Part shown: positions 1,348-57,149 of the stretch, piece by piece
Layout: every line of letters starts with the position of its first letter
Numbering within the stretch: the stretch's first letter is position 1
NCBI GenBank assembly: GCA_951406725.2
Contig: OX597815.1
Span: 26,722,001-26,786,000, forward strand
Source of the DNA: Octopus vulgaris
Taxonomy: Eukaryota
Direction of reading: 5' to 3'
DNA: 64,000 nt
Program-made: the position numbers and the translations under genes
Notes under the pieces: generated by a model
The model's input: only the letters and a program-made list of their open reading frames with translations
What the model was told of the DNA's origin: nothing
Databases searched by the model: none

Positions 1348-1862
1348 TGAGCAAGATTTCCTTTAAGGCTGTAATCATGGGTACTTGTCAATTGTCGTGG
1401 TCCCGGTTTTGCACACGCGAATTCGCGCGCGCGCGCGCGTCAGACGTAGGTACTCGATACTCGAGATCCTACGAGGTGACTTGCGCAGTGCAGAATTCGC
1501 GCGTGCGCGTTAAACCCCCCCTAAAAAAAAAGGTGTTGGATTTCACTAAAAATATATATGTGTGTGTGTGTGTATATAACATTTTCAATTTTACACAAAA
1601 AAATTACATAGTCGCTTTCCTCGCGGATTTACAGAGAAATGAATTAATTACTATTTTACAGAATAAAATTAATGAATTAATTATATAAATTAAATAATTC
1701 TTGAAAATTAATTAATATTAATAATATTTTTTGAACAAAGTAAATAATTTATAAAACTTGGTTAATAATTTTTTTTACACAAACGCGAACGTATATAATT
1801 TGTGAAACTTTTTTTTTTTTACAGACGTATATAATTTGGTAAACTTAATGAATTAATTTCTT

Positions 1863-2280
1863 ATCATCATCATCGTTTAACGTCCGTTCTCCATGCCAGC
1901 ATGGGTTGGACGGTTTGACCGGGGATCTGGGAAGCCAGAAGGCTGCACCAGACTCCAGTCTTATCTGGCAATGTTTCTACAGCTGGATGCCCTTCCTAAC
2001 GCCAACCACTCCGAGAGTGTAGTGGGTGCTTTTTACATGCCACCCGCACAGGTGCCAGGCGAGGCTGGCAACGGCCACGGTCGGATTGGTGCCAGTCAAG
2101 CGGCTCTGGCATCGGCCACGATTCGGATAGTGCTTTTTACGTACCACCAGTCCAGGGGTCCTGGCATTTGCCGGGTGCCACACTTGCCCCAACATGTCTT
2201 CGCAAGCAAAGGGGGTTGGCATGGGTGCCTGTCGTGGGATGAGGTTCGATATCAACTTCGCTTGCCTCAACAGGTCTTTG
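1863..2280 (-). mobile_element. RTE-type LINE 3'-end fragment nested in the foldback arm (mirror copy ~3377-3795; also in both arms of copy 2)
   Basis: The (CAT)n-CGTTTAACGTCC tail and body match the 3' end of the RTE element at 47604-48000. Confidence 0.8.
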
Positions 2281-2865
2281 TGTATAAATGTATAAATTTT
2301 TCGCACTAAATTCTTTCCGTAGAATTTATCAAAAAACGCGCAAAATTATTCCGTAGACTTTATCAAATTAAAAAACGCAAAATTAATATATTTTTTGAAA
2401 TTGCAAATTATTTAGAATATAAAACAAATTAAGTTAAATTTTAAAAATAAATGTCATATACTTATACTCTGTAAGGTGCTGTGTTCACACTTCAATTTAC
2501 TATTTTCTAGAAATGTTGCTTTTCTAATTGAAACAATTTTTCTCAATCTCCATTTAAAAGTCCATAATGCCTCTTGAGCCATATCAAAATGAACAACTTT
2601 GAATTACCCGGTGGTGGTGGTGGTGGTGGTGTGAGGTTCTAATTTTTTTTCTGATCTCTCTTTGCCCCCTCTTTATCTCAGTTGTTCATTCAGCTAATAT
2701 TTAGAAAAATTTTCGCGCCCAATTTTTGTTGTCGCGGGAAAAGATGAACGATTTAAAATAAATATATCTTAATTGTAGTGTGAGAAAGTATATATATTCT
2801 GATGACAAAATATATTATCTTTCAAAAACATCCCAAATTTATAGACTATATCGTGTAGGTTTAAG

Positions 2866-2867
<2 letters not shown>

Positions 2868-2934
<67 letters not shown>

Positions 2935-2936
2935 TA
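2868..2936. repeat. (TA)n microsatellite in the foldback spacer
   Basis: Directly visible; shorter in copy 2 (~55767-55804). Confidence 0.95.
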
Positions 2937-5467
2937 GTAGAGAATGAAACATCTTTCATCTGTCTCCCCACCACACCTCCATCTAGGGGGGGGGGCAAAG
3001 AGAGATCAGAAAAAAAATTAGAACCTCACACCACCACCACCACCGGGTAATTCAAAGTTGTTCATTTTGATATGGCTCAAGAGGCATTATGGACTTTTAA
3101 ATGGAGATTGAGAAAAATTGTTTCAATTAGAAAAGCAACATTTCTAGAAAATAGTAAATTGAAGTGTGAACACAGCACCTTACAGAGTATAAGTATATGA
3201 CATTTATTTTTAAAATTTAACTTAATTTGTTTTATATTCTAAATAATTTGCAATTTCAAAAAATATATTAATTTTGCGTTTTTTTAATTTGATAAAGTCT
3301 ACGGAATAATTTTGCGCGTTTTTTGATAAATTCTACGGAAAGAATTTAGTGCGAAAAATTTATACATTTATACACAAAGACCTGTTGAAGCAAGCGAAGT
3401 TGATATCGAACCTCATCCCACGACAGGCACCCATGCCAACCCCCTTTGCTTGCGAAGACATGTTGGGGCAAGTGTGGCACCCGGCAAATGCCAGGACCCC
3501 TGGACTGGTGGTACGTAAAAAGCACTATCCGAATCGTGGCCGATCGCCAGAGCCGCCTCGACTGGCACCAATCCGACCGTGGCCGTTGCCAGCCTCGCCT
3601 GGCACCTGTGCGGGTGGCATGTAAAAAGCACCCACTACACTCTCGGAGTGGTTGGCGTTAGGAAGGGCATCCAGCTGTAGAAACATTGCCAGATAAGACT
3701 GGAGTCTGGTGCAGCCTTCTGGCTTCCCAGATCCCCGGTCGAACCGTCCAACCCATGCTGGCATGGAGAACGGACGTTAAACGATGATGATGATGAGAAG
3801 AAATTAATTCATTAAGTTTACCAAATTATATACGTCTGTAAAAAAAAAAAGTTTCACAAATTATATACGTTCGCGTTTGTGTAAAAAAAATTATTAACCA
3901 AGTTTTATAAATTATTTACTTTGTTCAAAAAATATTATTAATATTAATTAATTTTCAAGAATTATTTAATTTATATAATTAATTCATTAATTTTATTCTG
4001 TAAAATAGTAATTAATTCATTTCTCTGTAAATCCGCGAGGAAAGCGACTATGTAATTTTTTTGTGTAAAATTGAAAATGTTATATACACACACACACATA
4101 TATATTTTTAGTGAAATCCAACACCTTTTTTTTTAGGGGGGTTTAACGCGCACGCGCGAATTCTGCACTGCGCATGTCACCTCGTAGGATCTCGAGTATC
4201 GAGTACCTACGTCTGGCGCGCGCGCACGCGCAAATTCGCGTGTGCAAAACCGGGACCACGACAATTGACAAGTACCGTAATCATGATAATGGAAGATAGT
4301 AGATTTATGTGAACTTCTCTCGATGTTGGAGTAATTATTTCGAAGCGGGAACCTGACAACAATTAGGAAAATAGATTTGTTTGTCTAAATAATTTCCAAA
4401 CTGAAATGTTGATCTGTTGTTTATGGGAACCTATAATCCACTGTTACATGTGGTATAAAGGAAATTAAGGGTAATGTTGACGTTGTTACCCGGAGAGGAA
4501 ACCGAGAAAAAGAAATAGTGCAACGGGTGTAAAAGAAAAAGGTGTAAAAAAGAAATCTGAAGAGAAAAATGTGCAGAAAGCAATGAGGGTTAGAGGCCTT
4601 CGGAAAATTGACAAGATCCGAAGGTTTTCCCTCGTAACTTTTAGGGAAATGGGGTTTTTGTAAGTGAAATTTTATATGAATACGTTTCAAACGGTATAGA
4701 TCACGATTATAAAGAAATTTGTGGGGAAAATGTTTTGCGATGGGGTCAGGAGAGGACTTCGGTAAATCCGATGTTTTTCCCTCGTAACTCTGAGGAAAAT
4801 ATAATCCTTTTGAAATAACAAATTAAGTTTTTCCTCAGGAACTTGTATGCTAAACATCCTTTTGTCAAGATTCATTCGTTAGTCCCCCTTTCATATAGCA
4901 CATGCTGTTAACTATAAACACATGAAATATTATCACTTATAATACACTTTCTTCATGCACATACATATTTCTTCTCTGTATTTGTGTGGAATGTAGATAA
5001 CAAAATCAATGTCGCAGTTTAAACTTGAGAAAAGCCTTGAATATTTATAATGTGCAAGTTATAGATACATGTGCGTGTTTTCGGCTAGGGTTCTTTCGTA
5101 ACTGGTTCATTTGTGTATGTAAATTTCTGAATGCATTTATTAAGAAATAACATAGTAAATTTAAGTAATAAAAGAAGCATGCTAGGAAAGATCACTAATA
5201 ATGGAGTCATGAATTCTTATCCTCTCTGTAGGATTATATGAACCATTCGAAGTTACAGTAATCACATAGAAACATTAAGAAAATATGCTTCCTTGTCTTA
5301 GATATCTCAACCATTGATGTTTCTTTTAAAGTTATGAGTAAACGAATTTAGAGTGTAAAACATTTATGTCGTTATGCCATTCTTTCAATGCCTCAATTAA
5401 CTCTGACCCCTAAAAACATTTAATAGATAACAATGTTAAATTTTGCAACGTTGAATTAGTGTATCAT

Positions 5468-5509: not shown

Positions 5510-5897
5510 AATATCTCCTTATTTTGACCCACAAGAAACTTCTTCATTCAGATGTGCCTTTCATATTTTGACGTCGTTTCATCAACTAAAGCAAGATGAC
5601 ATGATTTATCAGCAGCATTCATCAATACATCAGAATTTATATGAATACAATATTCTTCTTGTCTTCACTGTTTGGAATGTAGAGGAAGTGATTGCCTTAC
5701 AGGTTAATTAAGGTGGGATAGTTTTACAAACGAGTTGACGATTTTCTATCAGCTCATTTAGATATTTTGATCACAGATGAAAGGAAGATAGCTCCAAATA
5801 CTTTTCTAGAAAGAGTGGCAGAACTGAAAACAAAGATATTTATAGAGATGAAGGAAACATTATTATTGTGATATGTATAATGAATTATTCTTTCACA

Positions 5898-6941
5898 ATG
5901 AATAATTTAACTGAAGCAAAAAGCGATGATACAAGAGTGAAGCAATGTTTCTGTGATATTTGTGGTAAATCATTCAATTATCATAGTCACTTGACTACTC
6001 ACAGACGTATGCATACAGGAGAAAAGCCATTTCATTGTGATATTTGTGGTAAATCATTCTGTCGAAGCAGCCACGTTATTAGACACAAATTTACACATAC
6101 AGGAGAAAAGCCTTATCATTGTGGTATCTGTGGTAAATCATTCTCTCAACGGTGTACCTTGACTGAACACAAAAGTGTTCATACAGGAGAAAAGGCATAT
6201 CATTGTGAAATTTGTGGTAAATCAATCTCTAAAAGGAGTGAATTGACTAATCACAAACGTACACATACAGGAGAAAAGCCATATCATTGTGATATCTGTG
6301 GTAAATCATTCTCTCAAAGGAGTACCTTGACTCAACACAAACGTGTTCATACAGGAGAAAAGGCATATCATTGTGAAATTTGTGGTAAATCATTCTCTAA
6401 AAGGAGTGAATTGACTAATCACAAACGTACACATACAGGAGAAAAGCCATATCATTGTGATATCTGTGGTAAATCATTCTCTCAAAGGAGTACCTTGACT
6501 CAACACAAACGTGTTCATACAGGAGAAAAGGCATATCATTGTGAAATTTGTGGTAAATCATTCTCTAAAAGGAGTCATTTGACTCGACATAAATATGTAC
6601 ATACAGGAGAAAAGCCATATCATTGTGATATTTGTGGTAAATCGTTCTGTCAAAGCAGCAACGTGACTATTCACAAATGTACACATACAGGAGAAAAGCC
6701 ATATGATTGTGATATCTGTGGTAAATCATTCTCTCAAAGGAGTAGCCTGACTCAGCATAAATATGTACATACAGGAGAAAAGCCATATCATTGTGAAATT
6801 TGTGGTAAATCATTCTCTATAAGGAGTAATTTGACTCGGCATAAATATACACATACAGGAGAAAAGCCATATGATTGTGATATCTGTGGTAAATCATTCT
6901 CTCAAAGGAGTAACTTGACTAAGCACAGAGCATCGCTATAG
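5898..6941 (+). CDS. C2H2 zinc-finger protein, type A (11 complete fingers + 1 truncated)
   Basis: Tandem CxxC-x12-HxxxH with TGEKPY linkers. The conserved ATG at 5898 is chosen over the GTG at 5868. Confidence 0.9.
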
Positions 6942-7715: not shown

Positions 7716-10504
7716 GAGTTGGTGAAATCTGTGGTAAATCATTCCTTCCAAGGAGTAATTCGACTCGGCACAAACATACACACACGGGAGAAAAGCCATA
7801 TCATTGGAAGTTTAAAGAATGTTAACCCTTCTGGCAATCCTCTGACTTTGATGTAAAGGTGTCTTGTTTTCTTAAGTTTTGAATTAGAATTTTCTACCAA
7901 ACCTTAGTCAGAATTTATGATCCTGAAACTAGGTTAATGATAACCACCAAGTTATTTTACAAACACAAACACTTGTTGCACGCACTGTTCTCATACTACA
8001 GCGGACACATGTACATGCACTCAGACAGGACACTGTGCTAGCACCCATACTTTCTCCTACTTTACACATCTGTAAATAAAATCTTTCTCAAATAGGACGG
8101 TTGTCGTCTTCATTATTGCTTTTAGCACTTTTTCATTTATGTCATGTATTTGGCTTGTTTTGTTAGGGCGGCCGTGCGGCGTTAAAGGGAGAAATTTCTG
8201 TCACCAACTCCTTTCGTGTGGTCTTACTCCCTACAAGGGTTTTGTGACATATTAGTAGGTCACCGGAATTCATTCAATAAAGAAAAGAAATTACAGTGAT
8301 TCCGGGATGGGTTGTGGGTGTGCGATTTCTCACCCAACCCATTTTCTAAACAAAAATGAGGGGTTTGCAGCATATTAAGAGGTCAGGGCAATTGATTCCA
8401 CACAAAAAATCCGAAAATATTGAAAATATTGCAGGTGAAGGAATCAAAATAGACCCCAGTGAGTAGCGCCACCTATAGGAGAAGTCATGTAAAGGGAAAC
8501 AACTCCAGCTGCACTTGATCTTCGCGCCAATTAAATTATTAATTTCGTTGATTAATTACTCATCACTGACTCGTTTATATCTCGATCGGGTAAGTTGAGC
8601 AAGATTTCCTTTAAGGCTGTAATCATGATAATAATACTTCTAATGTTATTGGAAGATAATAGATTTCTGTGAACTTCTCTCGATGTTGGAGTAATTATTT
8701 CGAAGCGGGAACCTGACCACAATTAGGAAAATAGATTTGTTCGTCTGAATAACTTCCAAACTGAAATATTAATCTGTTGTTTATGGGAACCTATAATCCA
8801 CTCATACATGTGGTATAAAGGAAATTAAGCGTAATGTTGATGGTGTTTCCCGGAGAGGCAATCGAGAAAAAGAAATAGTGCAACGGGTGTAAAAGAAAAA
8901 GGTGTAGAAAAGGAATCTGAAGAGAAAAATGTGCAGAAAGCAATGAGGGTGAGAGGCCTTCGGAAAATTGACAAGATCCGAAGGTTTTCCCTCGTAGCTT
9001 TTAGGGAAATGGGGTTTTTGTAACTGAAATTTTATATGAATACGTTTCAAACGGTATAGGTCACGATTATAAAGTAACTTGTTGGGAAAATGTTTTGCGA
9101 TGGGGTCAGGAGAGGACTTCGGTAAATCCGATGTTTTTCCCTCGTAACTTTGAGGAAAATGGATATCTTTCTATTTCACATCCACGTAGGGAACGAATCT
9201 GAAAACAAAAATACTCTGAAAGCAACGGGGTGGGGAGAGGCCTTCGGAAGATTCACAAGATCCGAGGTTTTTCCCTCGTAACTTAGAGGAAAATATAATC
9301 CTTTTGAAATAACAAATTAAGTTTTTCCTCAGGAACTTGTATGCTAAACATCTTTTTGTCAAGATTCCTTCGTTAGTCCCCCTTTCGTTATAGCACATGC
9401 TGTTAACTATAAACACATGAAATATTCTTAACTGCTTCATTTGTGTATGTAAATTTCTAAGAAGAAAACGAGATCGATGTCAAAAAAGCTGTATTACTGA
9501 TGATATTTCATGAATTTAGTGCTGACAACACTTGCTCTCATGCTCACTGAAACTAACAAATGAATCTTGACGAGTCTGAGACTCAGAAACGCTTAATTGT
9601 CGCTTTACAAAACTGAAGAGGAACGAGAAGCTGTTAAGCATTTTGTCTGAGAAGCAAATGATTCTTCCTCTAAATAATACACGGTTGACCAGAATCCATG
9701 ATTCGCTTGTTCGTTAAATTTTTTTATATATCATTTATGAATACATTTATTAAGAAATAAAATAGTAAATTTAAATAATAAAAGAAGCATGCTAGGAAAG
9801 ATCACTAATAATTGAGTCATGAATTCTTACCCTCTCTGTAGGATTATATGAACCCTTCGAAGTTACAGTAATCACATAGAAACATTAAGAAAATATGCTT
9901 CCTTGTCTTAGATATCTCAAACATTGATGTTTCTTTGAATGTTATGAGTAAACGAATTTAGAGTGTAAAACATTTATGTCGTTATGCCATTCTTTCAATG
10001 CCTCAATTAACTCTGACCCCTAAAAACATTTAATAGATAACAATGTTAAATTTTGCAACGTTGAATTAGAGTATTTAACTATTCTCTTTATCTTGATGTT
10101 TCTTTTCCTATTTCAGAATATCACCTTATGTTCACCCACAAGAAACTTCTTCATTCAGATGTGCCTTTCATATTTTTACATCGTTTCACCAACTAAAGCG
10201 AGATGACATGATTTATCAGCAACATTCATCAATACATCAGAATTTATATGAATACAATATTTTTCTTGTCTTCACTGTTTGGAACGTAGAGGAAGTGATT
10301 GCCTTACAGGTTAATTAAGGTGGGATAACTTTACAAACGAGTTGACGATTTTCTATCAGCTCATTTAGATATTATGATCACAGATGAAATAAAGATAGCT
10401 CCAAATTCTTTTCTAGAAAGAGTGGCAGAACTGAAAACAAAGTTGTTTATAGAGATGAAGGAAACATTATTATTGTGATATGTATAATAAATTATTCTTT
10501 CACA

Positions 10505-11239
10505 ATGAATAAATTAACTGAAGCAAAAAGCGATGATACAAGAGTGAAACAATATTTCTGTGACATTTGTGGTAAATTATTCAATTATAGTAGTCACTTG
10601 ACTAGTCACAGACATATCCATACTGAAGAAAAGCCATATGACTGTGAAATCTGTGGTAAATCATTCTCTAAAAGGAGTGACTTGACTAAACACAAACGTA
10701 CGCATACAGGAGAAAAGCCATATCATTGTGAAATCTGTGGTAAATCATTCTGTCAAAAAAGTGACTTGACTAAGCACAATCGTACACATACAGGAGAAAT
10801 GCCACATCATTGTGATATCTGTGGTAAATTATTCTCACGTAGGAGTGGGTTGACTATGCACAAACAAACGCATACAGGAGAAAAGCCATATTGTTGTGAA
10901 ATCTGTGGTAAATCATTCTGTCAAAGTAGTGACTTGACTAAGCACAATCGTACCCATACAGGAGAAAGGCCATATCATTGTGATATCTGTGGTGTATCAT
11001 TCTGTGACAGGAGTAATTTGACTCGGCATATATATACACATACAGGAGAAATGCCATGTCAATGTGATATTTGTGGTAAATCATTCTGTCGAAGAAGTGA
11101 CGTGACTAGACACAAATATACACATACAGGACAAAAGCCATATGATTGTGATATCTGTGGTAAATCTTTCTCTGTAAGGAGCAATTCGATTCGGCACAAA
11201 CACACACACGGGAGAAAAGCCATATCATTGGAAGTTTAA
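10505..11239 (+). CDS. C2H2 zinc-finger protein, type B (8 fingers)
   Basis: Eight canonical fingers. It ends through a 2-bp slip in a (CA)n run, giving GRKAISLEV*. Confidence 0.88.
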   Translation: MNKLTEAKSDDTRVKQYFCDICGKLFNYSSHLTSHRHIHTEEKPYDCEICGKSFSKRSDLTKHKRTHTGEKPYHCEICGKSFCQKSDLTKHNRTHTGEMPHHCDICGKLFSRRSGLTMHKQTHTGEKPYCCEICGKSFCQSSDLTKHNRTHTGERPYHCDICGVSFCDRSNLTRHIYTHTGEMPCQCDICGKSFCRRSDVTRHKYTHTGQKPYDCDICGKSFSVRSNSIRHKHTHGRKAISLEV

Positions 11240-13639
11240 AGAATGTTAACCCTTCTGATACCAAACCAGCTGGCACCCCCTTTGAATCTGCTGTAAAAGT
11301 TTCATGTTTTCTTAAGTTTTGAATTGAAATTTTCCACCAAACCTTAGTCAGAATTTATGATCCTGAAACTAGGTTGATGATAACTACCAAGTTATTTTAC
11401 AAACACTTGTTGCACGCACTGTTCTTGTATTACAGCGGACACACAGACACATGTGCTAGCACCCATACTTTATCCTACTGTGCACATCTGTAAATAAAGT
11501 CTTCTCTCTCAAACAGTAGAACGGTTGTCGTCTTCATTATTGCTTTTGGCACATTTTCAGTTATGTCATGTATTTGGCTTCTTTTATTAGGGCAGTGTTA
11601 AAGGGAGAAATTTCTGTCACCAACTCCTTTCGTGTGGTCTTACTCCCTACAAGGGTTTTGTGACATTAGTAGGTCATCGGAATTCATTCAATAAAGAAAA
11701 GAAATTCCGGGATGGGGTGTGGGGGTGCGATTTCTCACCCAACCCATTTTCTGAACAAAAATGAGGGGTTTGCAGCATATTAAGAGGTCAGGGTATTTGA
11801 TTCCACACAAAAAATCCGAGATTTTTTTTTTTTTTTCTCATTGCAAATTTTGCGGGTGAAGGGATCAAAATGGACCCCAGTGAGTAGCGCCACCTATAGG
11901 AGAAGTCATGTAAGGGGAAACAACTCCAGCTGCACTTGATCTTCGCGCCAATTAAATTATTAATTACGTTGATTAATTACTCATCACTGACTCGTTGTTT
12001 ATATCTGGATCGGGTAAGTTGAGCAAGATTTCCTTTAAGGCTGTTATCATGATAATAATACTACTAATGATAATGGAAGATAATAGATTTCTGTGAACTT
12101 CTCTCGATGTTGGAGTAATTATTTCGAAGCGGGAACCTGACGACAATTAGGAAAATAGATTTGTTCGTCTGAATAACTTCCAAACTGAAATGTTAATCTG
12201 TTGTTTATGGGAACCTATAATCCACTATTACATGTGGTATAAAGGAAATTAAGGGTAATGTTGACGTTCCGAGAAAAAGAAATAGTGCAACGGGTGTAAA
12301 AGAAAAAGGTGTAGAAAAGGAATCTGAAGAGAAAAATGTGCAGAAAGCAATGAGGGTGAGAGGCCTTCGGAAAATTAACAAGATCCGAAGGTTTTTCCCT
12401 CGTAACTTTTACGGAAATGATTTTATATGAATACGTTTCAAACGGTATAGGTCACGATTATAAAGAAATTTGTGGGGAAATTGTTTTCCGATGGGGTCAG
12501 GAGAGGACTTCGGTAAATCCGATGTTTTTCCCTCGTAACTTTGAGGAAAATATAATCCTTTTGAAATAACAAATTAAGTTTTTCCTCAGGAACTTCTATG
12601 CGAAACATCCTTTTGTCAAGATTCGTTCGTTATTGCACATGCTGTTAACTATAAACACATGAAATATTATCACTTATAATACACTTTCTTGATGCACATA
12701 CATATTTGTGTGGAATGTAGATAATAAAATCAATGTGGCAGTTTAAACTTGAGAAAAGCCTTGAATATTTATAATGTGCAAGTTATAGATGCATGTATGC
12801 ATTTCTGTGCATGTGTGTGTTTTCGGCTATGGTTCCTTCGTAACTGCTTCATTTGTGTATGTAAATTTCTGAATGCATTTATTAAGAAATAAAATAGTAA
12901 ATTTAAATAATAAAAGAAGCATGCTAGGAAAGATCACTAATAATTGAGTCATGAATTCTTACCCTCTCTGTAGGATTATATGAACCCTTCGAAGTTACAG
13001 TAATCACATAGAAACATTAAGAAAATATGCTTCCTTGTCTTAGATATCTCAAACATTGATGTTTCTTTTAAAGTTATGAGTAAACGAATTTAGAGTGTAA
13101 AACATTTATGTCGTTATGCCATTCTTTCAATGCCTCAATTAACTCTGACCCCTAAAAACATTTGATAGATGACAATGTTAAATTTTGCAACGTTGAATTA
13201 GTGTATCATCTAACTATTCTCTTTATCTTGATGTTTCTTTTCCTATTTCAGAATATCACCTTATGTTGACACACAAGAAACCTCTTCATTCAGATGTGCC
13301 TTTCATATTTTGACGTCGTTTCATCAACTAAAGCAAGATGACATGATTTATCAGCAACATTCATCAATACATCAGAATTTATATGAATACAATATTTTTC
13401 TTGTCTTCACTGTTTGGAATGTAGAGGAAGTGATTGGCTTACAGGTTAGTTAAGGTGGGATAACTTTACAAACGAGTTGACAATTTTCTATCAGCTCATT
13501 TAGATATTATGATCACAGATGAAAGAAAGATAGCTCCAAATTCTTTTCTAGAAAGAGTGGCAGAACTGAAAACAAAGATGTTTATAGAGATGAAGGAAAC
13601 ATTATTATTGTGATATGTATAATAAATTATTCTTTCACA

Positions 13640-14686
13640 ATGAAAAATTTAACTGAAGCAAAAAGCGATGTTACAAGAGTGAAGCAATGTTTCTGTGATA
13701 TTTGTGGTAAATCATTCAATTATCATAGTCACTTGACTACTCACAGACGTATCCATACAGGAGAAAAGCCATTTCATTGTGATATTTGTGGTAAATCATT
13801 CGGTCGAAGCAACAGCGTGACTAGACACAAATTTACACATACAGGAGAAAAGCCATATCATTGTGATATCTGTGGTAAATCATTCTCTCAAAGGAGTACC
13901 TTGACTGAACACAAAAGTGTTCATACAGGAGAAAAGCAATATCGTTGTGAAATCTGTGGTAAATCATTCTCTCAAAGGAGTAGCTTCACTCAGCATAAAT
14001 ATGTACATACAGGAGAAAAGGCATATCATTGTGATATCTGTGGTAATTCATTCTCTCAAAGGAGTAGCTTCACTCAGCATAAATATGTACATACAGGAGA
14101 AAAGGCATATCATTGTGAATTTTGTGGTAGATCATTCTTTAAAAGGAGTAATTTGACTCGACATAAATATACACATAAAGGAGACAAGGCATGTCATTGT
14201 GAAATTTGTGGTAAATCATTCTTTAAAAGGAGTCACTTGACTCAACATAAATATACACATACAGGAGAAAAGCCATATCATTGTGATATCTGTGGTAAAT
14301 CATTCTCTCAACGGAGTACCTTGACTCAACACAAAACTGTTCATACAGGAGAAAAGCCATATCATTGTGATATCTGTGGTAATTCATTCTCTCAAAGGAG
14401 TAGCTTCACTCAGCATAAATATGTACATACAGGAGAAACGGCATGTCATTGTGAAATCTGTGGTAAATCATTCTCTAAAAGGAGTCATTTGACTCGACAT
14501 AAATATACACATACAGGAGAAAAGCCATATCATTGTGATATCTGTGGTAAATCATTCTCTCAACGGAGTACCTTGACTCAACACAAAACTGTTCATACAG
14601 GAGAAAAGCCATATCATTGTGATATCTGTGGTAATTCATTCTCTCAAAGGAGTACTTTGACTCAACACAAAACTGTTCATACATGA
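13640..14686 (+). CDS. C2H2 zinc-finger protein, type A' (12 fingers; TGA in linker, further fingers follow)
   Basis: Twelve fingers. The stop is GGA>TGA in the TGEKP linker, and finger-coding sequence continues to ~15005. Confidence 0.88.
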
Positions 14687-15795: not shown

Positions 15796-17997
15796 GTTGG
15801 TGAAACCTGTGGTAAATCATTCCTTCCAAGGAGTAATTCGACTCGGCACAAACACACACACGGGAGAAAAGCCATATCATTGGAAGTTTAAAGAATGTTA
15901 ACCCTTCTGATACCAACCCAGCTGGCACCCCTCTGACTTTGCTGTAAAAATGTCTTGTTATCTTAAGTTTCGAATTGAAATTTTCTACCAAACCTTAGTC
16001 AGAATTTATGATCCTGAAACTAGGTTAATGATAACCACCAAGTTATTTTACAAACACAAACAATTGTTGCACGCACTGTTCTCATACTACAGCAGACACA
16101 TGTGCATGCACTCAGACACGACACTGTGCTAGCACCCATACTTTATCCTACTGTACACATCTGTAAATAAAGTCTTCTCTCTCAAACAGTAGAACGGTTG
16201 TCTTTCTCATTATTGCTTTTGGCCCTTATTCAGTTATGTCATGTATTTGGCTTCTTTTGTTAGGGCGGCGATGCATCGTTAAAGGAAGAAATTTCTATCA
16301 CCAACTCATTTCGTGTGGTCTTACTCCCTACAAGGGTTTTGTGACATTAGTAGGTCACCGGAATTCATTCAATAAAGAAAAGAGATTCCGGGATGGGGTG
16401 TGGGGGTGCGATTTCTCACCCAACCCATTTTCTGAACAAAAATGAGGGGTTTGCAGCATATTAAGAGGTCAGGGTATTTGACTCCACACAAAAAATCCGA
16501 GTTTTTTTATTTTTTCTCATTGCAAATTTTGCGGGTGAAGGGATCAAAATTGACCCCAGTGAGTAGCCCCACATATAGGAGATGTCATGTAAGGGGAAAC
16601 AACTCCAGCTGCACTTGATCTTCGCGCCAATTAAGTTATTAATTACGTTGATAATCCTTTTGAAATAGTAAATTAGTCCCCTTTCGTTATTGCACATGCT
16701 GTTAACTATAAACACATGAAATATTATCACTTATAATACACTTTCTTGATGCACATACATATTTCTGCTCTACATTTGTGTGGAATGTAGATAATAAAAT
16801 CAATGTGGCAGTTTAAACTTGAGAAAAGCCTTGCATATTTATAACGCACAAGTTATAGATGCATGTGTGTGTTTTCGGCTAGGGTTCCTTCTTAACTGCT
16901 TCATTTGTGTATGTAAATTTCTAAGAAGAAAACGAGATCGATGTCAAAAAAGCTGTATTACTGATGATATTTCATGAATTTAGTGCTGACAACACTTGCT
17001 CTCATGCTCACTGAAACTAACAAATGAATCTTGACAAGTCTGAGACGCAAAAACGCTTAAATGTCGCTTTACAAAACTGAAGAGGAACGAGAAGCTGTTA
17101 AGCATTATGTCTGAGAAGCAAATGATTCTTCCTCTAAATAATACACGGTTGACCAGAATCCATGACTCACTTGTTCGTTAAATTTTTTTATATATCATTT
17201 CTGAATGCATTTATTAAGAAATAAAATAGTAAATTTAAATGATAAAAGAAGCATGCTAGGAAAGATGACTAATAATTGAGTCATGAATTCTTACCCTCTC
17301 TGTAGGATTATATGAACCCTTCGAAGTTACAGTAATCACATAGAAGGGAAAACATGGAAACATTGAGAAAATATGCTTCCTTGTCTTAGATATCTCAAAC
17401 ATTGATGTTTCTTTGAATGTTATGAGTAAACGAATTTAGAGTGTAACACATTTATGTTGTTATGCCATTCTTTCAATGCCTCAATGAACTCTGACCCCTA
17501 AAAACATTTCATAGATAACAATGTTAAATTATGCAACATTGAATTAGTGTATCATTTAACTATTTTCTTTATCTTGATGTTTCTTTTCCTATTTCAGAAT
17601 ATCACCTTATGTTGACACACAAGAAACTTCTTCATTCAGATGTGCCTTTCATATTTTAACGTCGTTTCATCAACTGAAGCAAGATGACATAATTTATCAG
17701 CAGCATTTATCAATACATAAAAATTTATAAGAATACAATCTAAGAATACAATATTTTTCTTTTCTTCACTGTTTGGAATGTAGACGAAGTGATTGCCTTA
17801 CAGGTTAATTAAGGTTGGCTAACTTTACAAACGAGTTGACAATTTTCACCTGCTCATTTAGATATTATGATCACAGGTGAAAGAAACACAGCTCCAAATT
17901 CTTTTCTAGAAAAAGTGGCAGAACTAAAAACAAAGATGTTTATAGAGATGAAGGAAACAATATTATTGTGATCTGTATAATAAATTATTCTCTCATA

Positions 17998-43225: not shown

Positions 43226-43810
43226 CAAATATTGATTTTCTTTTGATTGGCATGAGAAAACAAATGTGTGTAGAGCATGTCATTACGCCAGTCTTTCAAT
43301 GCCTCAAGGAACTCTGACCCCTAAAAACATTTAATAGATGACAATGTTAAATTTTGCAACATTGAATTAGTGTATCATCTAACTATTCTCTTTATCTTGA
43401 TGTTTCTTTTCCTATTTCAGAATATCACCTTATGTTGACACACAAGAAACTTCTTCATTCAGATGTGCCTTTCATATTTTGACATCGTTTCACCAACTAA
43501 AGCAAGATGACATAATTTATCAGCAGCATTCATCAATACATCAAAATTTATAAGAAGACAATATTTTTCTTGTCTTCACTGTTTGGAATGTAGAGAAAGT
43601 GAATGCCTTACTGGTTAATTAAGGTTGGATAACTTTACAAACGAGTTGACGATTTCTTTCAGCTGATTTAGATATTAAGTAAGATCACAGAAGACAGAAA
43701 CACAGCTCCAAATTCTTTTCTAGAAAATGTTGCAGAACTGAAAAAAAGATGTTTATAAAGATGAAGGAAACATTATAATTGTGATATGTATAATAAATTA
43801 TTCTCTCATA

Positions 43811-44953
43811 ATGAATAAATTAATTGAAGCAAAAAACGATGATACAAGTGTGAAACAATATTTCTGTGATATCTGTGGTAAATCATTCAATTATAATAGT
43901 CGCTTGACTAGTCACAGACGTATCCATACTGGAGAAAAACCATATCACTGTGATATTTGTGATAAATCATTTTTTTCAAATAGCACTTTAACTGAACACA
44001 AACGTACACATACAGGCGAAAAACCTTATCATTGTAATATCTGTGGTAAATCATTCTTGTGTAGGACTCACTTGATTCAACACAAGAATACACATACAGT
44101 TGAAAAGCCATATCATTGTGATATCTGTGGTAAATCATCCTCTCAAAAGAGTGACTTGACTAAACACACACATACACACACAGGAGAAAAGCCATATCAT
44201 TGTAATATCTGTGGTAAATCATTCTCTCAAAAGAGTAACTTGACTCATCACAAATATACACATACAGGAGAAAAGCCATATCATTGTGAAATCTGTGGTA
44301 AATCATTCTCTCAAAGGAGTCACTTGACTCAACACAAACGCACACATACAGGAGAAAAGCCATATCATTGTGAAATCTGTGGTAAATCATTCTCTCAAAC
44401 GAGTGAATTGACTACACACAAACGCACACATACAGGAGAAAAACCATATCATTGCGACATCTGTGCTAAATCATTCTCGCGTAGGAGTATTTTGACTGAA
44501 CACAGACATACACATACAGGAGAAAAGCCATATCATTGTGATATCTGTGGTAATTCATTCTCTCAAAGGAGTTACTTGACTCATCACAAATATACACATA
44601 CAGGAGAAAAGCCATATCATTGTGATATCTGTGGTAAATCATTCTCTCAAAGCAGTGACTTGACTAATCACAAACATACACATGCAACAGAAAAGCCATA
44701 TTGTGATATTTGTGGTAGATCCTTCTCTCAAATGTGTAACTTGATTCAGCACAAACGTACACATACAGGCGAAAAGCCATATCATTGTGATATCTGTGGT
44801 AAATCATTCTCTCATAGGAGTAACTTGACTAAGCACAAACGTACACATACAGGAGAAAAGCCATATCATTGTGATATGTGTGGTAAATTATTCTCTGATA
44901 TGAGTAACTTGACTAAACACAAGTGTACACATACAGAAGCCATATCATTGTGA
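43811..44953 (+). CDS. C2H2 zinc-finger protein, type D (13 fingers)
   Basis: Thirteen fingers. A linker deletion gives TEAISL*, and decayed fingers follow to ~45330. Confidence 0.9.
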
Positions 44954-47603: not shown

Positions 47604-50365
47604 TTCATCATTATCATCATCATCATCGTTTAACGTCCGTTTTCCGCACTAGCACAGGGTGGACGGTTCGACCGGGGTCTGGGAAGCCAGGAGGCTGCAC
47701 CAGGCTCCAGTCTGATCTGGCAGTGTTTCTACAGCTGGATGCCCTTCCTAACGCCAACCACTCCGCGAGTGTAGTTGGTGCTCTTTACATGCCACCGACA
47801 TAGGTGCCAGGGGAGTCTGGCAGCGGCCACGATCGGGCTGGTGCTTTTAATGTGCCACCGGCACAGAAGCCAGTCTAGACGGGGCTGGTATCAGCCACGT
47901 TTGGATGGTGCTTTTTATGTGTCACTGGCACAGGTATCACAACTACTATTTCCATTGATATTTATTTCGATGTTCATGTACTTGACTCAATAGGTCTCCT
48001 CAAGCACAACGGGATGTTCTGAAATCCAAGGTACTTTGAATGGGCAGGGGCTATGCGGATCTGGTGCAGGAAGCAGCCCGGGTCTTTGCAGTCACAGCAT
48101 ATCTTCAGAGATAGCGGTCCTTCGTCATTGCCTCTGTGAGGCTCAATGCTCTGAGGTCATGCTTGACTACCTCATCCCATGTCTTCCTGGGTCTACCTCT
48201 CCCCCTGATACCTTCAACTGTTTGGGAGCGGCACTTCTTCACACATCTCTCCTCATCCATCCGCAGTACATGACCATACCATCGCAAGCGTCGCTCTTGC
48301 ACACCACATCTGATGCTTATGTCCAGCATTTCTCTCAGGGCACTTACACTCTGTCGTGTGTGCACACTGACATTACACATCCAGCGGATCATGCTAGCTT
48401 AATTTCATTCAAGTCTATGCATGTCCTCTGCAGTCACAGCCCATGTTTCACTACCATGAAGCATGGTAGTTCGCACACATGCATCATACAATCTACCTTA
48501 CACTCTGAGCGAGAGACCCTTTGTCGCCAGTAGGGGTAGAAGCTTTCTAAACTTTGCCCAGGCTATTCGTATTCTAGTGGTGGCACTCTCTGAGCATCCA
48601 CCTCCACTACTAACTTGGTCATCCAGGTAGCAGAAACTATCAACTACTTCTAGTTTCTACCCCTGGAGTGTGATGGAATCTGTTTTCTGAGTATCTGTGG
48701 TGTCTATTGTCCCTGTGCATCTGCCGCACATGAAAGCAATCTTATCAGTTAATTTCCCTTTGATGTTGCTGCACCTCTTATGCATCCATAGCTTACACTG
48801 GGTACATCTTATGGAGTTTCCACCTACACCTTTCCTACAGATCGAGCAGGGCTACCTGCCCGAGGGTGTGTCTGCTGGGTTCTGCCTTTCTGTTTACTAT
48901 AACTTTGGTCTTTGCTACATTTACTCTAAGGCCCTTTGATTCTAACCCTTGCTTCCACACCCAAAATTTCTTTTCTAGTTCCAGTAGTGATTCTGCTATG
49001 AGAGCCAGGTCATCAGCATAGAGGAGCTCCCAGGGGCAACCTGTTTTGAATTTCTCTGTTATTGCCTGGAGGACTATGATGAATAAAAGGGGACTGAGGG
49101 CTGAACCTTGGTGTACACCTACTTCTACCCGGAATTCTTCACTATATTCGTTGCCAATCATAACCTTGCTGACAGCCTCTCTGTATAGGGCCTGTACAGC
49201 CCTTATTAGCCATTCGTCAATCTCCAGTTTCTGCATCGACCACCAGATAAGGGATCGGGGGACCCTGTCAAAGGCTTTCTCCAAGTCCACAATAGCTAGG
49301 TACTTTTGCAGTTGTTGGACCAGGAATATAGCATCAGTGGTGCTTCTACCTGGCACAAAACCAAACTGCATCTCATCTAAGCTAATTCTCTCCCTAATGA
49401 GATGGGTTATGACCCTCTCTGTGACCTTCATTAACTGATCCAACAGTTTAATACCCCTGTAGTTATTTCTATCTAGAGCATCACCTTTACCCTTGTAGCA
49501 GTTGGCTATGGTGCTGCTACGCCAGTCATTGGGTATGACTCCATTATGAACTACCTGGTTTACAATGCGGGTGACTAGGCCATAGCTCACACAACCAGCT
49601 GTTTTAAGCATCTCAGCAGTGATTCCTGATGGGCCGGGGGCTTTACTTGGTTTCATACCCTTAATTGCCTTAACTACAAGGGAGCTGTCTATTCGGATAG
49701 CTGGTCCCTCTACTGGGTCAACATTTGGCAGACTCTCCTCCTCCCATTCATTCTCCACATTCAGCAGTCTTTCATAATGGCTTCTCCAAGCCTCTTTCTT
49801 TTCACCATCATTAAAAGCAAGTGCCCCATCATCCATGCGGACACATTTCTCTCCTGTAACATCACTATTTTCTCTCACACACTGTCTAGCAATCCGAAAT
49901 ACCTCAGTTCTTTGGTCCTCACTGGACATTGGCAAACTTCTTTTCTGCTACATCTTTGGCTATGTATACCTGCCGCCCAGCCTCCTTTTGGCTACCTGGT
50001 ACAGTTCCCTGCTACCCCCATCCCTCCAAGCTTTCCAGGCCTGTTTCTTTGCACTAATGGCTTTGTCTACTGTACTATTCCACCACCACGTAACTCTAGG
50101 TCTGGAAGGCACTTTGCACCATCCACGGACTTGGTCTGTGGCACTCAGCAAGCTGTCCCGTAGGAATTTCCAGCTACCTTCTGTGTCCGACGTCTGTAGC
50201 TCCTCCTCCCTCTCATCAAATTTCTTGATGAGTATGTCCCTAAATCTCTGACCATGTGAAGGGTTCTTTAGCTTCCAAATCCTTCTTTTCTGGATTGGTC
50301 TGTTTCTTGGAATCCTTCTGGCCTCAATGATTAGCCTATGCTGAGGGGCACATTCTTCACCCGGG
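47604..50365 (-). mobile_element. RTE-clade LINE, 5'-truncated and frameshifted (reverse transcriptase + PHD-like insert + 3' UTR)
   Basis: ORF 48835-49935 has KAPGPSGI, QFGFVPGRSTTDAI, DLEKAFDRV, GVHQGSALSP and YADD. The C-terminus has RRLRWYGHVLRM...RGRGRPRKTW, followed by an (ATG)n tail. Confidence 0.92.
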
Positions 50366-51399: not shown

Positions 51400-52239
51400 T
51401 GTTAAGTCAAGTGATACTTTTTAGAAAATGATTTACCACAGATATCAGAATATGGCTTTTCCCCTGTATGTGTATGTTTGTGTTGAGTCAAGTCCTATAA
51501 GAGATTGATTTAGCACAGATATCGCAATGATATTTCTTTTCTCTTCGATATGTATGTGCATGTTGAATCAAGTTACACCCATAAGAGAATGATTTACCAC
51601 ATACTACAAAGATATGGCTTTACTGTTGCATGTGTATACTCGTGTTTAGTCAAGTTACTCCTTTTAGAGAATGACCTATCACAATCATATGGCTTTTCTC
51701 CTGAATGAGTACGTTTATGTTGAGTCAAGTTACTCCTACACGAGAATGATTTACCACAGATCTCACAATGAAACGGCTCTTCTCCTGTATGTGTACGTTT
51801 GTGTTCAGTCAAGGTACTCCTTCGAGAATGATTTACCACAGATATCACAATGATATGGCTTTTGTCCTGTATGTGTATGTTTGTGGTGAGCCAAGTTACT
51901 CCTACACGAGAATGATTTACCACAGATCTCACAATGAAACGGCTCTTCTCCTGTATGTGTACGTTTGTGTTCAGTCAAGGTACTCCTTCGAGAGAATGAT
52001 TTACCACAGATATCACAATGATATGGCTTTTGTCCTGTATGTGTATGTTTGTGGTGAGCCAAGTTACTCCTACACGAGAATGATTTACTACAGATATCAC
52101 AATCATATGGCTTTTCCCCAGTATGTGTATGCTTGTGTTCAGTCAAGGTATTCCTATAAGAGAATGATTTACCACAGATTTCACAGGAATGTTGTTTCTC
52201 TTTTGAATCTGGGTTTTTTGGTTTAGTTAAGTTGCTCAT
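51400..52239 (-). pseudogene. C2H2 zinc-finger gene on the minus strand, frameshifted in finger 5 (4-finger ORF 52239-51805)
   Basis: ATG at 52239. A 2-bp loss (TTCGAGAATG vs TTCGAGAGAATG) at ~51825 shifts the frame. Fingers continue in another frame to 51594 and decay to ~51400. Confidence 0.8.
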
Positions 52240-54269
52240 TATAAGAGAATAATTTATTATACATATCACAATTATAATGTTTCCTTCATCTTTATAAACA
52301 TCTTTGTTTTCAGTTCTGCAACATTTTCTAGAAAAGAATTTGGAGCTGTGTTTCTTTCTTCTGTAATCTTACTTAATATCTAAATCAGCTGAAAGAAATC
52401 GTCAACTCGTTTGTAAAGTTATCCAACCTTAATTAACCAGTAAGGCATTCACTTTCTCTACATTCCAAACAGTGAAGACAAGAAAAATATTGTATTCATA
52501 GATTGTATTCTTATAAATTTTGTACTGATAAATCATGTTATCTTGCTTTAGTTGGTGAAACGATGTCAAAATATGAAAGGCACATCTGAATGAAGAAGTT
52601 TCTTGTGTGTCAACATAAGGTGATATTCTGAAATAGGAAAAGAAACATCAAGATAAAGAGAATAGTTAGATGATACACTAATTCAATGTTGCAAAATTTA
52701 ACATTGTCATCTATTAAATGTTTTTAGGGGTCAGAGTTCCTTGAGGCATTGAAAGACTGGCACAATGACATGCTCTACACACTACATTTGTTTTCTCATG
52801 CCAATCAAAAGAAAATCAATGTTTGGGCGTAACTTCGGTATAGGTACCGGATACATTTCAAGAAAGTGTTTTTTTTTATATAGGGTGGGGGGGGGGCAGA
52901 AAAGGGTTTCTGTTATCTTCAGAAATGTAAACAAAGCCACTTCTGGTACCTATAACGAAGGATCGTAAATGTTTGATATATCGAAGACGAGGAATCATAT
53001 TTTCTCAATGTTGCTATGTTCTTAATTCTATGAGATGACTGTAACCTCAAAGGGTACGTATAGTTTTAGAGCAAGGACCAGAATTCATGACTCAATTATT
53101 AGTAATCTTTCTTAACTTGCTTATTCTATATCATCAGTAATACAGCTTTTTTGACATCGTTCTCCTTTTATCTTTTTAGAAATTTACATACACAAATGAA
53201 GCAGCTAAGAAGGAACCCTAGCCGAAAACACACACTTGCACAGAAATGCATACATACATCTATAACTTGCACATTATAAATATGCAAGGCTTTTCTCAAG
53301 TTTAAACTGCGACGTTGATTTTGTTATCTACATTCCACACAAATACAGAGAAGAAATATGTATGTGCATCAAGAAAGTGTATTATAAGTGATAATATTTC
53401 ATGTGTTTATAGTTAACAGCATGTGCTGCCCCGAACGCGGAAACATACAAACGAATCTTGACAAATCGTAACAATTACAAGCCTGTTAGGGTATACATAA
53501 AAAAATCCGGAACAACGGTGTGTCAGTGTATTGTTTATTTCGCTTCCATCAGTCACACATGGTGAAAGAGAGTTCGAACACACATTTTAGTCTCCAAAGT
53601 CCCTTCCCTGCGGACCAAGTCGCTAACGAGGCCACACAATAGGCCCTGTCTGTAGTTCGTGTATTTTTGAGTCTTTGGGTAGGGCCCAGTACATCTTAAG
53701 TTTCAAAACACGAACTCCTTCCAGTTCGACTTTGCCTTGTATTCTTTCCAGGTAAACAAAATAAGGAGCTCCAATAGAAACGCATCTCTCCAAGAAAATG
53801 AAATGCAATTGAAAAAAAAAAGTCATGAAAATATATACAAAGTAAATGATGTATGCAAAAAAATTAGGAAGATTTATCTGTTTTTAAGTATTTTATACAA
53901 AAGAATAAAACAGAAGGAGAACGTTGCTGGCCCCGGCCAAAATGTGAAACCATCATCATTATTGCTTTATTCATCCCGAAAAAGAAGTCCAGCTCTCAGT
54001 GGAAATACGGCCGAGGTCGTATTTGCCTTTCGTCGTTTTCGAGAAATACTGGGTTCCATGTATTCGACTTCTGGCCCCGGGCCAAAATGTGGAACCATCA
54101 TCATCATTATCAAAGTAACTTTAAAGTAAATCTTCGTCAACTTGTCAATTAATTAGTGTCTCATAAACAACAGGACAACATTAATTAATGTGGTATTCTT
54201 CAATCGGTTTCCTCTCGTTTTACTAATTAATTATGCCACATTACTCTTATTTTATAAATTAATTTCCTT

Positions 54270-57149
54270 GGTAGTTGTCTATTGTCGTGGTCCCGGTTTC
54301 GCACACGCGAATTCGCGCGCGCGCGCGCCAGACGTAGGTAGTCGATACTCGAGATCCTACGAGGTGACATGCGCAGTGCAGAATTCGCGCATGCGCGTTA
54401 AACCCCCCCCCCCCTAAAAAAAAGGGGGTTGGATTTCACTAAAAATATATATGTGTGTGTGTGTGTGTGTATATATAACATTTTCAATTTTAGACAAAAA
54501 AATTACATAGTCGCTTTCCTCGCGGATTTACAGATAAATGAATTAATTACTATTTTACAGAATAAAATTAATGAATTAATTATATAAATTAAATAATTCT
54601 TGAAAATCAATTAATATTAATAATATTTTTTGAACAAAGTAAATAATTTATAAAACTTGGTTAATAATTTTTTTTACACAAACGCGAACGTATATAATTT
54701 GTGAAACTTTTTTTTTTTTACAGACGTATATAATTTGGTAAACTTAATGAATTAATTTCTTCTCATCATCATCATCGTTTAACGTCCGTTCTCCATGCCA
54801 GCATGGGTTGGACGGTTCGACCGGGGATCTGGGAAGCCAGAAGGCTGCACCAGACTCCAGTCTTATCTGGCAATGTTTCTACAGCTGGATGCCCTTCCTA
54901 ACGCCAACCACTCCGAGAGTGTAGTGGGTGCTTTTTACATGCCACCCGCACAGGTGCCAGGCGAGGCTGGCAACGGCCACGGTCGGATTGGTGCCAGTCG
55001 AGGCGGCTCTGGCATCGGCCACGATTCGGATAGTGCTTTTTACGTACCACCAGTCCAGGGGTCCTGGCATTTGCCGGGTGTCACACTTGCCCCAACATGT
55101 CTTCGCAAGCAAAGGGGGGTTGGCATGGGTGCCTGTCGTGGGATGAGGTTCGATATCAACTTCGCTTGCCTCAACAGGTCTTTGTGTATAAATGTATAAA
55201 TTTTTCGCACTAAATTCTTTCCGTAGAATTTATCAATAAACGCGCAAAATTATTCCGTAGAATTTATCAAATTAAAAACGCAAAATTAATATATTTTTTG
55301 AAATTGCAAATTATTTAGAATATAAAACAAATGAAGTTAAATTTTAAAAATAAATGTCATATACTTATACTCTGTAAGGTGCTGTGTTCACACTTCAATT
55401 TACTATTTTCTAGAAATGTTGCTTTTCTAATTGAAACAATTTTTCTCAATCTCCATTTAAAAGTCCATAATGCCTCTTGAGACATATCAAAATGAACAAC
55501 TTTGAATTACGCGGCGGCGGTGGTGGTGTGAGGTTCTAATTTTTTTTTCTGATCTCTCTTTGCCCCCTCTTTATCTCAGTTGTTCATTCCGCTAATATTT
55601 AGAAAAATTTTCGCGCCCAATTTTTGTTGTCGCGGGAAAAGATGAACGATTTAAAATAAATATATCTTAATTGTAGTGTGAGAAAGTATATATATTCTGA
55701 TGACAAAATATATTATCTTTCAAAAACATCCCAAATTTATAGACTATATCGTGTAGGTTTAAGAAATATATATATATATAGATATATATACATATACATA
55801 TATAACAGAGAACGAAACATCTTTCATCTGTCTCCCCACCACACCTCCATCTAGGGGGGCAAAGAGAGATCAGAAAAAAAAATTAGAACCTCACACCACC
55901 ACCGCCGCCGCGTAATTCAAAGTTGTTCATTTTGATATGTCTCAAGAGGCATTATGGACTTTTAAATGGAGATTGAGAAAAATTGTTTCAATTAAAAAAG
56001 CAACATTTCTAGAAAATAGTAAATTGAAGTGTGAACACAGCACCTTACAGAGTATAAGTATATGACATTTATTTTTAAAATTTAACTTCATTTGTTTTAT
56101 ATTCTAAATAATTTGCAATTTCAAAAAATATATTAATTTTGCGTTTTTTAATTTGATAAATTCTACGGAATAATTTTGCGCGTTTTTTGATAAATTCTAC
56201 GGAAAGAATTTAGTGCGAAAAATTTATACATTTATACACAAAGACCTGTTGAGGCAAGCGAAGTTGATATCGAACCTCATCCCACGACAGGCACCCATGC
56301 CAACCCCCTTTGCTTGCGAAGACATGTTGGGGCAAGTGTGACACCCGGCAAATGCCAGGACCCCTGGACTGGTGGTACGTAAAAAGCACTATCCGAATCG
56401 TGGCCGATGCCAGAGCCGCCTCGACTGGCACCAATCCGACCGTGGCCGTTGCCAGCCTCGCCTGGCACCTGTGCGGGTGGCATGTAAAAAGCACCCACTA
56501 CACTCTCGGAGTGGTTGGCGTTAGGAAGGGCATCCAGCTGTAGAAACATTGCCAGATAAGACTGGAGTCTGGTGCAGCCTTCTGGCTTCCCAGATCCCCG
56601 GTCGAACCGTCCAACCCATGCTGGCATGGAGAACGGACGTTAAACGATGATGATGATGAGAAGAAATTAATTCATTAAGTTTACCAAATTATATACGTCT
56701 GTAAAAAAAAAAAAAGTTTCACAAATTATATACGTTCGCGTTTGTGTAAAAAAAAATTATTAACCAAGTTTTATAAATTATTTACTTTGTTCAAAAAATA
56801 TTATTAATATTAATTGATTTTCAAGAATTATTTAATTTATATAATTAATTCATTAATTTTATTCTGTAAAATAGTAATTAATTCATTTATCTGTAAATCC
56901 GCGAGGAAAGCGACTATGTAATTTTTTTGTGTAAAATTGAAAATGTTATATATACACACACATACACACACATATATATTTTTAGTGAAATCCAACCCCT
57001 TTTTTTTTTAGGGGGGGGTTTAACGCGCATGCGCGAATTCTGCACTGCGCATGTCACCTCGTAGGATCTCGAGCATCGAGTACCTACGTCTGGCGCGCGC
57101 GCGCGAATTCGCGTGTGCGAAACCGGGACCACGACAATAGACAAGTACC
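54270..57149. mobile_element. Non-autonomous foldback (Mutator/MULE-like) DNA transposon, copy 2
   Basis: Arms 54270-55567 and ~55855-57149. The 9-bp TSD AATTTCCTT lies at 54261-54269 and 57150-57158. Same spacer as copy 1. Confidence 0.93.

Follow-up and report, generated by a model that had tools for sequence, protein, structure and literature searches.

Why should a variant in one arm of a palindromic transposon recur in the other arm of the same copy? The question arises from a 64,000-nucleotide stretch of the Octopus vulgaris genome (assembly GCA_951406725.2, contig OX597815.1, positions 26,722,001 to 26,786,000 of the forward strand), hereafter the window, which carries two copies of a foldback element: copy 1 (1380..4276; 2,897 bp) and copy 2 (54270..57149; 2,880 bp). 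In each, a spacer of ~300 bp separates two arms of ~1,290 bp in inverted orientation. An initial annotation of the window had placed the copies at exactly these coordinates, which are abutted on both sides by 9-bp duplications, and had called them giant, an overstatement for an element of 2.9 kb. Its central proposal, that the arms are repeatedly homogenised within each copy, is supported genome-wide by doubleton alleles, distances and a tree. The reading that we favour, with a probability of about 0.68, is that of a non-coding foldback derived from Merlin transposons, in which the two arms of one copy come to carry common mutations by patchy gene conversion inside the element.

Both arms of a copy carry the same variants

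In the four-arm alignment of the window copies, 13 substitutions sort by copy, none within the arm sorts by side and 19 are confined to a single arm; the columns that do sort by side all lie past the inner end of the arm. Counting indels, the arms are 98.2% identical in copy 1 and 98.5% in copy 2, and the copies are 95.6% identical to each other. Such a by-copy pattern cannot arise from independent mutation after insertion. All nine examples of copy-distinguishing variants that had been quoted initially are present in this alignment and are concordant in both arms, but most of them mark subfamilies and are not private to a copy, and neither window copy has a private both-arm allele.

We searched the whole genome (2.8 Gb in 227 contigs; loci are labelled L followed by a number). 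Exact terminal patterns matched 86+88 and 91+88 times and the spacer pattern 81 times, and the family comprises about 90 copies. Arm-pair statistics cover the 78 copies with two alignable arms among the matches listed; 13 further terminal matches lie outside that list, part of which the spacer-pattern search brought back. A conservative set of 74 copies omits L147 and L148 (older variants), L027, around which a large palindrome is centred, and L074, which duplicates L073. Masking of low-complexity columns left 1,009 of 1,307 alignment columns and also removes a mirrored site of L073 and the marker at 968 from the allele counts. Position numbers such as 11, 270, 697, 816, 968, 996, 1068 and 1187 are sites in the arm. 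The copies fall into an older subfamily (24 copies, 1.11% between copies), which includes copy 2, and a younger one (54 copies, 0.21%), which includes copy 1.

Across the 78 copies, the pair of bases in the two arms is nearly always matched: GG in 51 and TT in 23 at position 270, CC in 54 and AA in 17 at position 996, TT in 54, GG in 17 and one discordant pair at position 1068, AA in 47, TT in 22 and one discordant pair at position 11, and AA in 31, CC in 36 and two discordant pairs at position 968. Each of these both-arm subfamily alleles had to be born on one arm and copied to the other before it spread. The same tendency is seen among rarer variants. Of 38 doubleton alleles in the 74-copy set, 22 pair the left arm of a copy with its own right arm, spread over 13 copies, where chance would give 1/147 for each (p ~4e-38); with all 78 copies the count is 26 of 43. 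Alleles found in at least three of the 78 copies occur in both arms in 144 copy-instances and in one arm in 34.

Distances and repeat lengths agree with the allele counts. Arms differ by 0.45% within copies against 1.11% between copies in the older subfamily, and by 0.14% against 0.21% in the younger. Among 46 young copies, 21 have an (AT)(GT)n repeat of the same length in both arms, where shuffling gives 5.4, with weaker matches for a T run (16/41 against 10.2) and a GGT run (15/50 against 10.3). The initial annotation had predicted a tree grouped by copy; among 17 older-subfamily copies, nine do pair left with right (support 70-99), but six are without resolution and L073/L074 group by side. 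This last pair are segmental duplicates, with a common flank of 234 bp on the left and >10 kb on the right (99.3-99.6%), and their side-wise grouping is a built-in control. Ten substitutions separate the two elements, two of which form a mirrored pair in L073, an apparent conversion in place. Other segmental duplicates add nothing to this in-place test: L012/L013 have no substitutions, L150/L151 keep just one full arm, and L059/L060, L154/L155 and L156/L157 do not have their insertion flanks in common.

Several observations weigh against this reading. One-arm singletons outnumber both-arm private alleles by 89 to 22 in the 74 copies. A nearest-neighbour test on 100 arms found the partner arm strictly nearest for 24, tied for 33 and not nearest for 43, although the test is blunt because young arms are near-identical. 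Parents that escaped sampling could already have carried the private both-arm alleles, which would then be older than the last jump. The apparent in-place conversion concerns one site only, where a homopolymer ends (T6G to T5G2). Both-arm alleles show no significant grouping into tracts (8 adjacent pairs, with 6.4 expected; p = 0.22), and GC-biased conversion is not seen (9:9 against 30:35, p = 0.80). Finally, one-arm variants are richest near the unique flanks (27 of 6,252 against 62 of 63,642 site-copies, p = 9e-9).

The last of these points would also be expected if the private both-arm alleles were artefacts of consensus building or short-read polishing that mixed reads of the two arms, so that the subfamily markers alone were real. 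Cross-talk of this kind could likewise give the higher private load of the spacer relative to the arm interior (1.48 against 0.79 per 1,000, p = 0.045). We consider such an artefact improbable. Five of the 22 private both-arm alleles lie within ~100 bp of the flank or spacer, the inner arm end lacks the enrichment seen at the outer end, and homopolymer and GGT lengths are mostly unequal between arms. Large indels are found in both arms of L050 (a 37-bp deletion) and of L060, and cross-talk cannot account for markers that occupy both arms in 17-36 copies spread over many contigs. The concert at the subfamily level is not exposed to the polishing doubt, whereas the copy-private alleles are. Raw-read runs X20-X22 gave 34 reads in total on the copy-1 stretch (10, 22 and 2), nearly all on a part resembling a short interspersed element (SINE). 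In the contig-only runs X1, X3, X4 and X15 at L061, alleles could not be assigned to an arm; weak empty-site joints in these runs (short side of 21-23 letters, T-rich) were not counted as evidence.

Homogenisation is patchy

Homogenisation of the arms is patchy and incomplete, and a jump does not necessarily bring it about. A 36-bp deletion is present on one arm of L018, L035, L158 and L051, which lie on different contigs and all share 697A in both arms. Two copies of the old subfamily, L048 and L055, have the same deletion, probably through recurrence between 14-bp direct repeats. Other one-arm deletions are of 35 bp in L023 and L135 and of 42 bp in L009, L067 and L142. Since these deletions were inherited by separate insertions, obligate re-synthesis of the whole arm is rejected, barring recurrent origin of every one of them. 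The extreme view that every transposition rebuilds one arm from the other, with insertions born as perfect palindromes, could draw on the 10 of 50 full copies that have no substitution between their arms, but one-arm deletions and the single-nucleotide polymorphisms (SNPs) 697A, 816T and 1187C are common to separate insertions, and we give this view next to no credence. Of the three mechanisms first suggested, arm-to-arm conversion fits best, and re-synthesis at each jump is contradicted.

In L051 the 36-bp deletion lies on the opposite arm while the side of the inner GGT marker is unchanged, a swap of the kind that crossover between arms predicts. In the arms of L018, L023, L009, L044, L050 and L081, most deletions of 35-55 bp are bounded by short direct repeats, as would be expected of slippage on a template that folds.

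The extent of homogenisation varies along the arm. Left-right mismatch per 1,000 is 9.3 in bases 1-100, 4.9 in bases 101-200, 1-2 inside and 2.3 beside the spacer. In the older subfamily homogenisation has barely touched the outer 200 bp (18.2 within copies, 23.4 between them), in contrast to the interior (3.0 against 7.8). This gradient, lowest inside and higher at the open end, is what would be expected if mismatches were repaired on a single-stranded hairpin formed on the lagging strand or in a repair intermediate, with base mismatches fixed and large loops left. The three one-arm deletions of 35-42 bp that persist in nine copies also fit such a process, since SNP 697A of one of these lineages is nevertheless in both arms. 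Set against it are the 37-bp deletion in both arms of L050, a ~30-bp segment of L098, L147, L150 and L153 that is absent from all four window arms, and the marker swap of L051, which requires exchange. As the whole explanation, hairpin mismatch repair seems to us a slim prospect, though it may be a sub-route of conversion.

The outer 140 bp (window 1380-1520 and its equivalents in all copies) carry ~4x the one-arm substitutions of the interior, with just 3 of the 27 at CpG sites, and form a local hairpin (-35.5 kcal/mol).

Rough ages and rates were calculated by hand, assuming a steady state and 3.6e-9 substitutions per site per year, a rate that derives from the equation of a Jukes-Cantor (JC) distance of 0.09 with 25 million years (PMC13282606; here and below, citations refer to sections of the papers concerned). 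The two subfamilies would then be roughly 1.5 and 0.3 million years old. The interior mismatch implies, again roughly, ~2e-6 conversions per site per year, compared with 6e-6 for the Y palindrome P6.

Merlin identity and the origin of the palindrome

The element is a non-autonomous Merlin (IS1595-like) derivative. We base this assignment on its GG ends, on target duplications of both 8 and 9 bp, and on a cognate transposase locus with a shared terminus; Merlin elements are described as having 5'-GG ends and target duplications of 8 or 9 bp (PMC8101967). Both window copies end GGTAC...GTACC. Among 85 two-ended copies, duplications are exact over 9 bp in 44 and over 8 bp in 29, contain one mismatch in four, and are absent or poor in eight. 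A Mutator or FB affiliation, our first guess from the 9-bp duplication, was dropped on the 8-bp duplications and the Merlin locus, no search aimed at the transposase of Mutator-like elements (MULEs) having been made.

A genome search with PF12762 returned 150 scored matches. At L098, an unbroken 294-amino-acid transposase (P0001; DDE_Tnp_IS1595, PF12762, E = 1.3e-19) is followed downstream by the terminus of the family, with 28 of its first 29 bases the same as the right end of copy 2, together with 377 bp of arm; the outer 377 bp of copy 1 (1380..1756, + strand) correspond to this end at 82% with gaps. Upstream of the L098 transposase gene lies part of the spacer (96%), and the spacer segment at 2736-2867 (+) of copy 1 resembles the upstream region in L098 and L118 at 92-96%. 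The L098 layout recurs in L118 and L123. A search of 12 single-ended or odd loci and of L117, L118 and L123 detected no autonomous copy with both ends; at the last three, the downstream end alone was present within ~10 kb.

The arm itself is a composite of this Merlin end, a ~420-bp insertion of a very high-copy interspersed repeat, and pieces that match a second Merlin family. In copy 1 the insertion occupies 1864..2283 (+) of the left arm, with its mirror at 3372..3796 (-) of the right arm (all boundaries approximate), and is absent from an older relative in L110; we take it to be SINE-like. The pieces at 2311..2631 (+), that is, arm positions 932-1045, 1103-1164 and 1202-1252, match loci of the second Merlin family, which has GGCAC ends. 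Because the repeat insertion is present in both arms, the palindrome, or a long copying event, must postdate it. It appears that one end of the progenitor replaced the other, and the progenitor's other end was not found in the loci searched.

Derivatives reduced to 42-54 bp of one end are still flanked by target duplications, so the functional terminal inverted repeat (TIR) is probably short. Collapsed copies lie at L046:356-437 (82 bp), L047:343-426 (84 bp) and L066:9598-9719 (122 bp), the last nested inside an older relative without the SINE-like insert. Older family variants are L147, L148 (L169), L150, L151, L153 and L159; L147, L150 and L153 retain the ~30-bp segment of L098, and in L148 the outer portion of both arms is a different one. 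Short elements of other kinds, whose ends are of the GGTAC...GTGGTCCCGG type, lie at L098:160-380 (with a 9-bp duplication), L110:2332-3897 and L118:1030-1263; they likely represent further non-autonomous families that use related Merlin transposases. In a cognate Merlin copy at L123:5700-6430, the final ~180 bp of the transposase gene are present as four tandem repeats.

We propose that one end of an internally deleted Merlin, with the SINE-like insert already aboard, took over the other end to form the palindrome, and that a Merlin transposase acting in trans would then cut and paste it without altering it. Breaks that arise at excision or through stalling at the fold-back would be mended on the other arm 300 bp away, mostly without but sometimes with crossover. 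A converted copy that jumped again would found a subfamily with its marker in both arms.

Possible coupling to transposase activity

A more interesting version of intra-element conversion ties homogenisation to Merlin activity. Under this scheme the donor gap would be refilled from the sister, and the nascent strand would fold back on its first arm, which would serve as the template for correcting or extending it; homogenisation would then be restricted to mobile lineages. It would fit the finding that widespread alleles are nearly all both-arm (144 against 34) and private ones mostly one-arm (26 against 92), and the fact that deletion derivatives whose junctions show microhomology or filler are common: of the junctions in 21 internally deleted copies, nine have 1-24 nt of microhomology, five filler, one is blunt and six are indeterminate. 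These repair scars count equally for the conversion that we favour. Inverted repeats in yeast are known to channel break repair into fold-backs (PMC6103520). On the other side, older alleles also had longer for ordinary conversion, one-arm markers outlast several jumps, and the loci searched (12 single-ended or odd ones plus L117, L118 and L123) hold no autonomous both-ended copy. We regard the coupling as unlikely; it is a special case of the conversion that we favour and inseparable from it with one genome.

A further proposal, in our view doubtful, is that Merlin elements here habitually become palindromes and that the repair of one arm on the other at donor sites is driven by the transposase of these elements themselves. 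If true, fold-back repair would be part of the amplification cycle, building long arms, synchronising them and lowering their mutation load, and the transposase-bearing palindromes in L118, L125 and L126 would represent the same process at earlier stages. It would also occasionally run into the flank and seed large host palindromes, of which the 59 kb at L027 would be a case.

Merlin palindromes with transposase pieces in both arms lie at L118:4940-7775 (98.5%), L126:3524-6723 (96-98%) and L125:4001-5967 (85%); the centre of the L118 palindrome is presumably a Helitron helicase fragment. At L075 the inverted repeat extends 128 bp into the flank, so that arm and flank are duplicated together, as they are at L027; this too counts for the favoured conversion. 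The element at L027 (with L165 and L170-L175; G000:C4:159479277-159538642) forms the centre of a ~59-kb palindrome with arms of 98.5-99.8% identity as assembled, and one of its ends is without its first bases, which were lost at a short microhomology. This large palindrome may be real or an assembly fold-back.

The window copies and their surroundings

Copy 1 belongs to the younger 'A' subfamily and is flanked by the 9-bp target-site duplication GTAATCATG at 1371..1379 and 4277..4285 (both +). Its left arm (1380..2669, +; 1,290 bp) is followed by a non-duplicated spacer (2670..2990, +), which contains (AT)n at 2868-2936, and by the right arm (2991..4276, -), an inverted copy of the left as defined by alignment. 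Copy 2, of the older 'T' subfamily, is flanked by the 9-bp duplication AATTTCCTT at 54261..54269 and 57150..57158 (both +), and alignment places its left arm at 54270..55567 (+), its spacer at 55568..55854 (+) and its right arm at 55855..57149 (-). Copy 1 has no open reading frame (ORF) of at least 150 amino acids, and the only tandem repeats in the element at score 40 are (GGT)7 and (AT)34. An Rfam scan returned four matches, all well under the gathering score and over (AT)n.

Both copies are surrounded by C2H2 zinc-finger genes with 84-bp repeats (Pfam zf-C2H2), clustered in tandem. By ORF and repeat scans, the open frames with these repeats are at 5781-6941, 10388-11239, 13523-14686, 17881-18729, 22979-24034, 27146-27994, 31751-32998, 38476-39558 and 43742-44953 on the + strand and at 51805-52368 on the - strand; the first of them (5781-6941), the one tested by Pfam, encodes a multi-finger C2H2 protein. 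The GTAATCATG 9-mer is present once at seven paralogous empty sites within the window, at one of them with a mismatch, and these seven units with a single copy of the target fix the insertion point of copy 1. The insertion points 1379 and 54269 are independent and fall ~190 bp apart in one paralogous stretch of two zinc-finger gene units. A 370-codon frame at 48835-49947 (-) carries a reverse transcriptase domain (PF00078, E = 5e-27) and is likely a fragment of a long interspersed element (LINE).

Significance and comparison with known systems

Most measurements of arm-to-arm conversion come from a small number of large palindromes that do not move. Here a 2.9-kb palindrome stands at ~90 independent sites, with the spacer as a built-in unconverted control, and the family would make conversion rate, tract length, edge effect and transposase dependence measurable with long reads from populations. 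Merlin joins the superfamilies that evolve foldback forms. The identity of left and right TIRs is no guide to the date of insertion, and the concerted arms suggest how transposase-binding ends could change in step.

Merlin elements are abundant in an octopus (PMC8101967), and the repeat annotation of Octopus vulgaris includes 18 Merlin families, two of them recently active (PMC13282606). The word 'foldback' is absent from the text of the latter paper as available, as are 'foldback' and 'palindrom' from one supplement; its consensus library may include the family. Our search of the open literature, with subscription papers outside its scope, found neither a Merlin foldback whose arms reach such a length nor a DNA transposon family in which arm conversion had been counted allele by allele. 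The mechanism itself is already known from Y palindromes, from TIR conversion in insertion sequences (IS) and from Galileo.

Compared with Merlin as related to IS1016/IS1595 (PMC8101967), the element agrees in its 5'-GG ends, its 8/9-bp duplications and the near-identical terminus of its cognate DDE_Tnp_IS1595 locus (P0001). It differs in its arms of 1,290 bp, against quoted TIRs of 24-462 bp (a descriptive range, not a diagnostic one), and in being without coding capacity, both ends appearing to stem from one progenitor end. Galileo of Drosophila mojavensis also has foldback-like non-autonomous copies, with TIRs of up to 1,260 bp that lengthen by recruiting internal sequence, and recombination and conversion have been proposed for it (PMC3573991). 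It belongs, however, to the P superfamily, makes 7-bp duplications and has tandem repeats inside its TIRs; TIR identity is 98-100%, without an allele-level conversion count in the parts of that paper examined (PMC3573991). FB and Tetris elements share the long inverted arms (to 1,735 bp in Tetris), the small middle domain and the non-autonomous state, but are mostly Mutator-related and built of tandem-repeat modules, where the element here has just microsatellites (PMC4079207). Foldback forms are believed to have arisen independently, for the most part in Mutator (PMC4079207).

Conversion between repeated ends is known in other mobile elements as well. Recombination between the TIRs within ISWpi1 of Wolbachia inverts the inside and converts one TIR (2 of 22 loci; PMC3004938); those TIRs are 23 bp long with one mismatch, and the system is bacterial and without subfamily-level concerted evolution in the sections cited. 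Conversion between long terminal repeats (LTRs) has been predicted for 25% of plant LTR pairs (PMC7251063). Y palindromes such as P6 resemble our element in arm-to-arm conversion, in an arm mutation load below that of the spacer and in a rate of the same rough order; they are immobile, at least 8 kb long and confined to a single locus, whereas the element here is 2.9 kb, mobile and present at ~90 sites (PMC8600007, PMC11168930). The octopus element may thus be described as a Merlin-derived foldback working like a small mobile Y palindrome.

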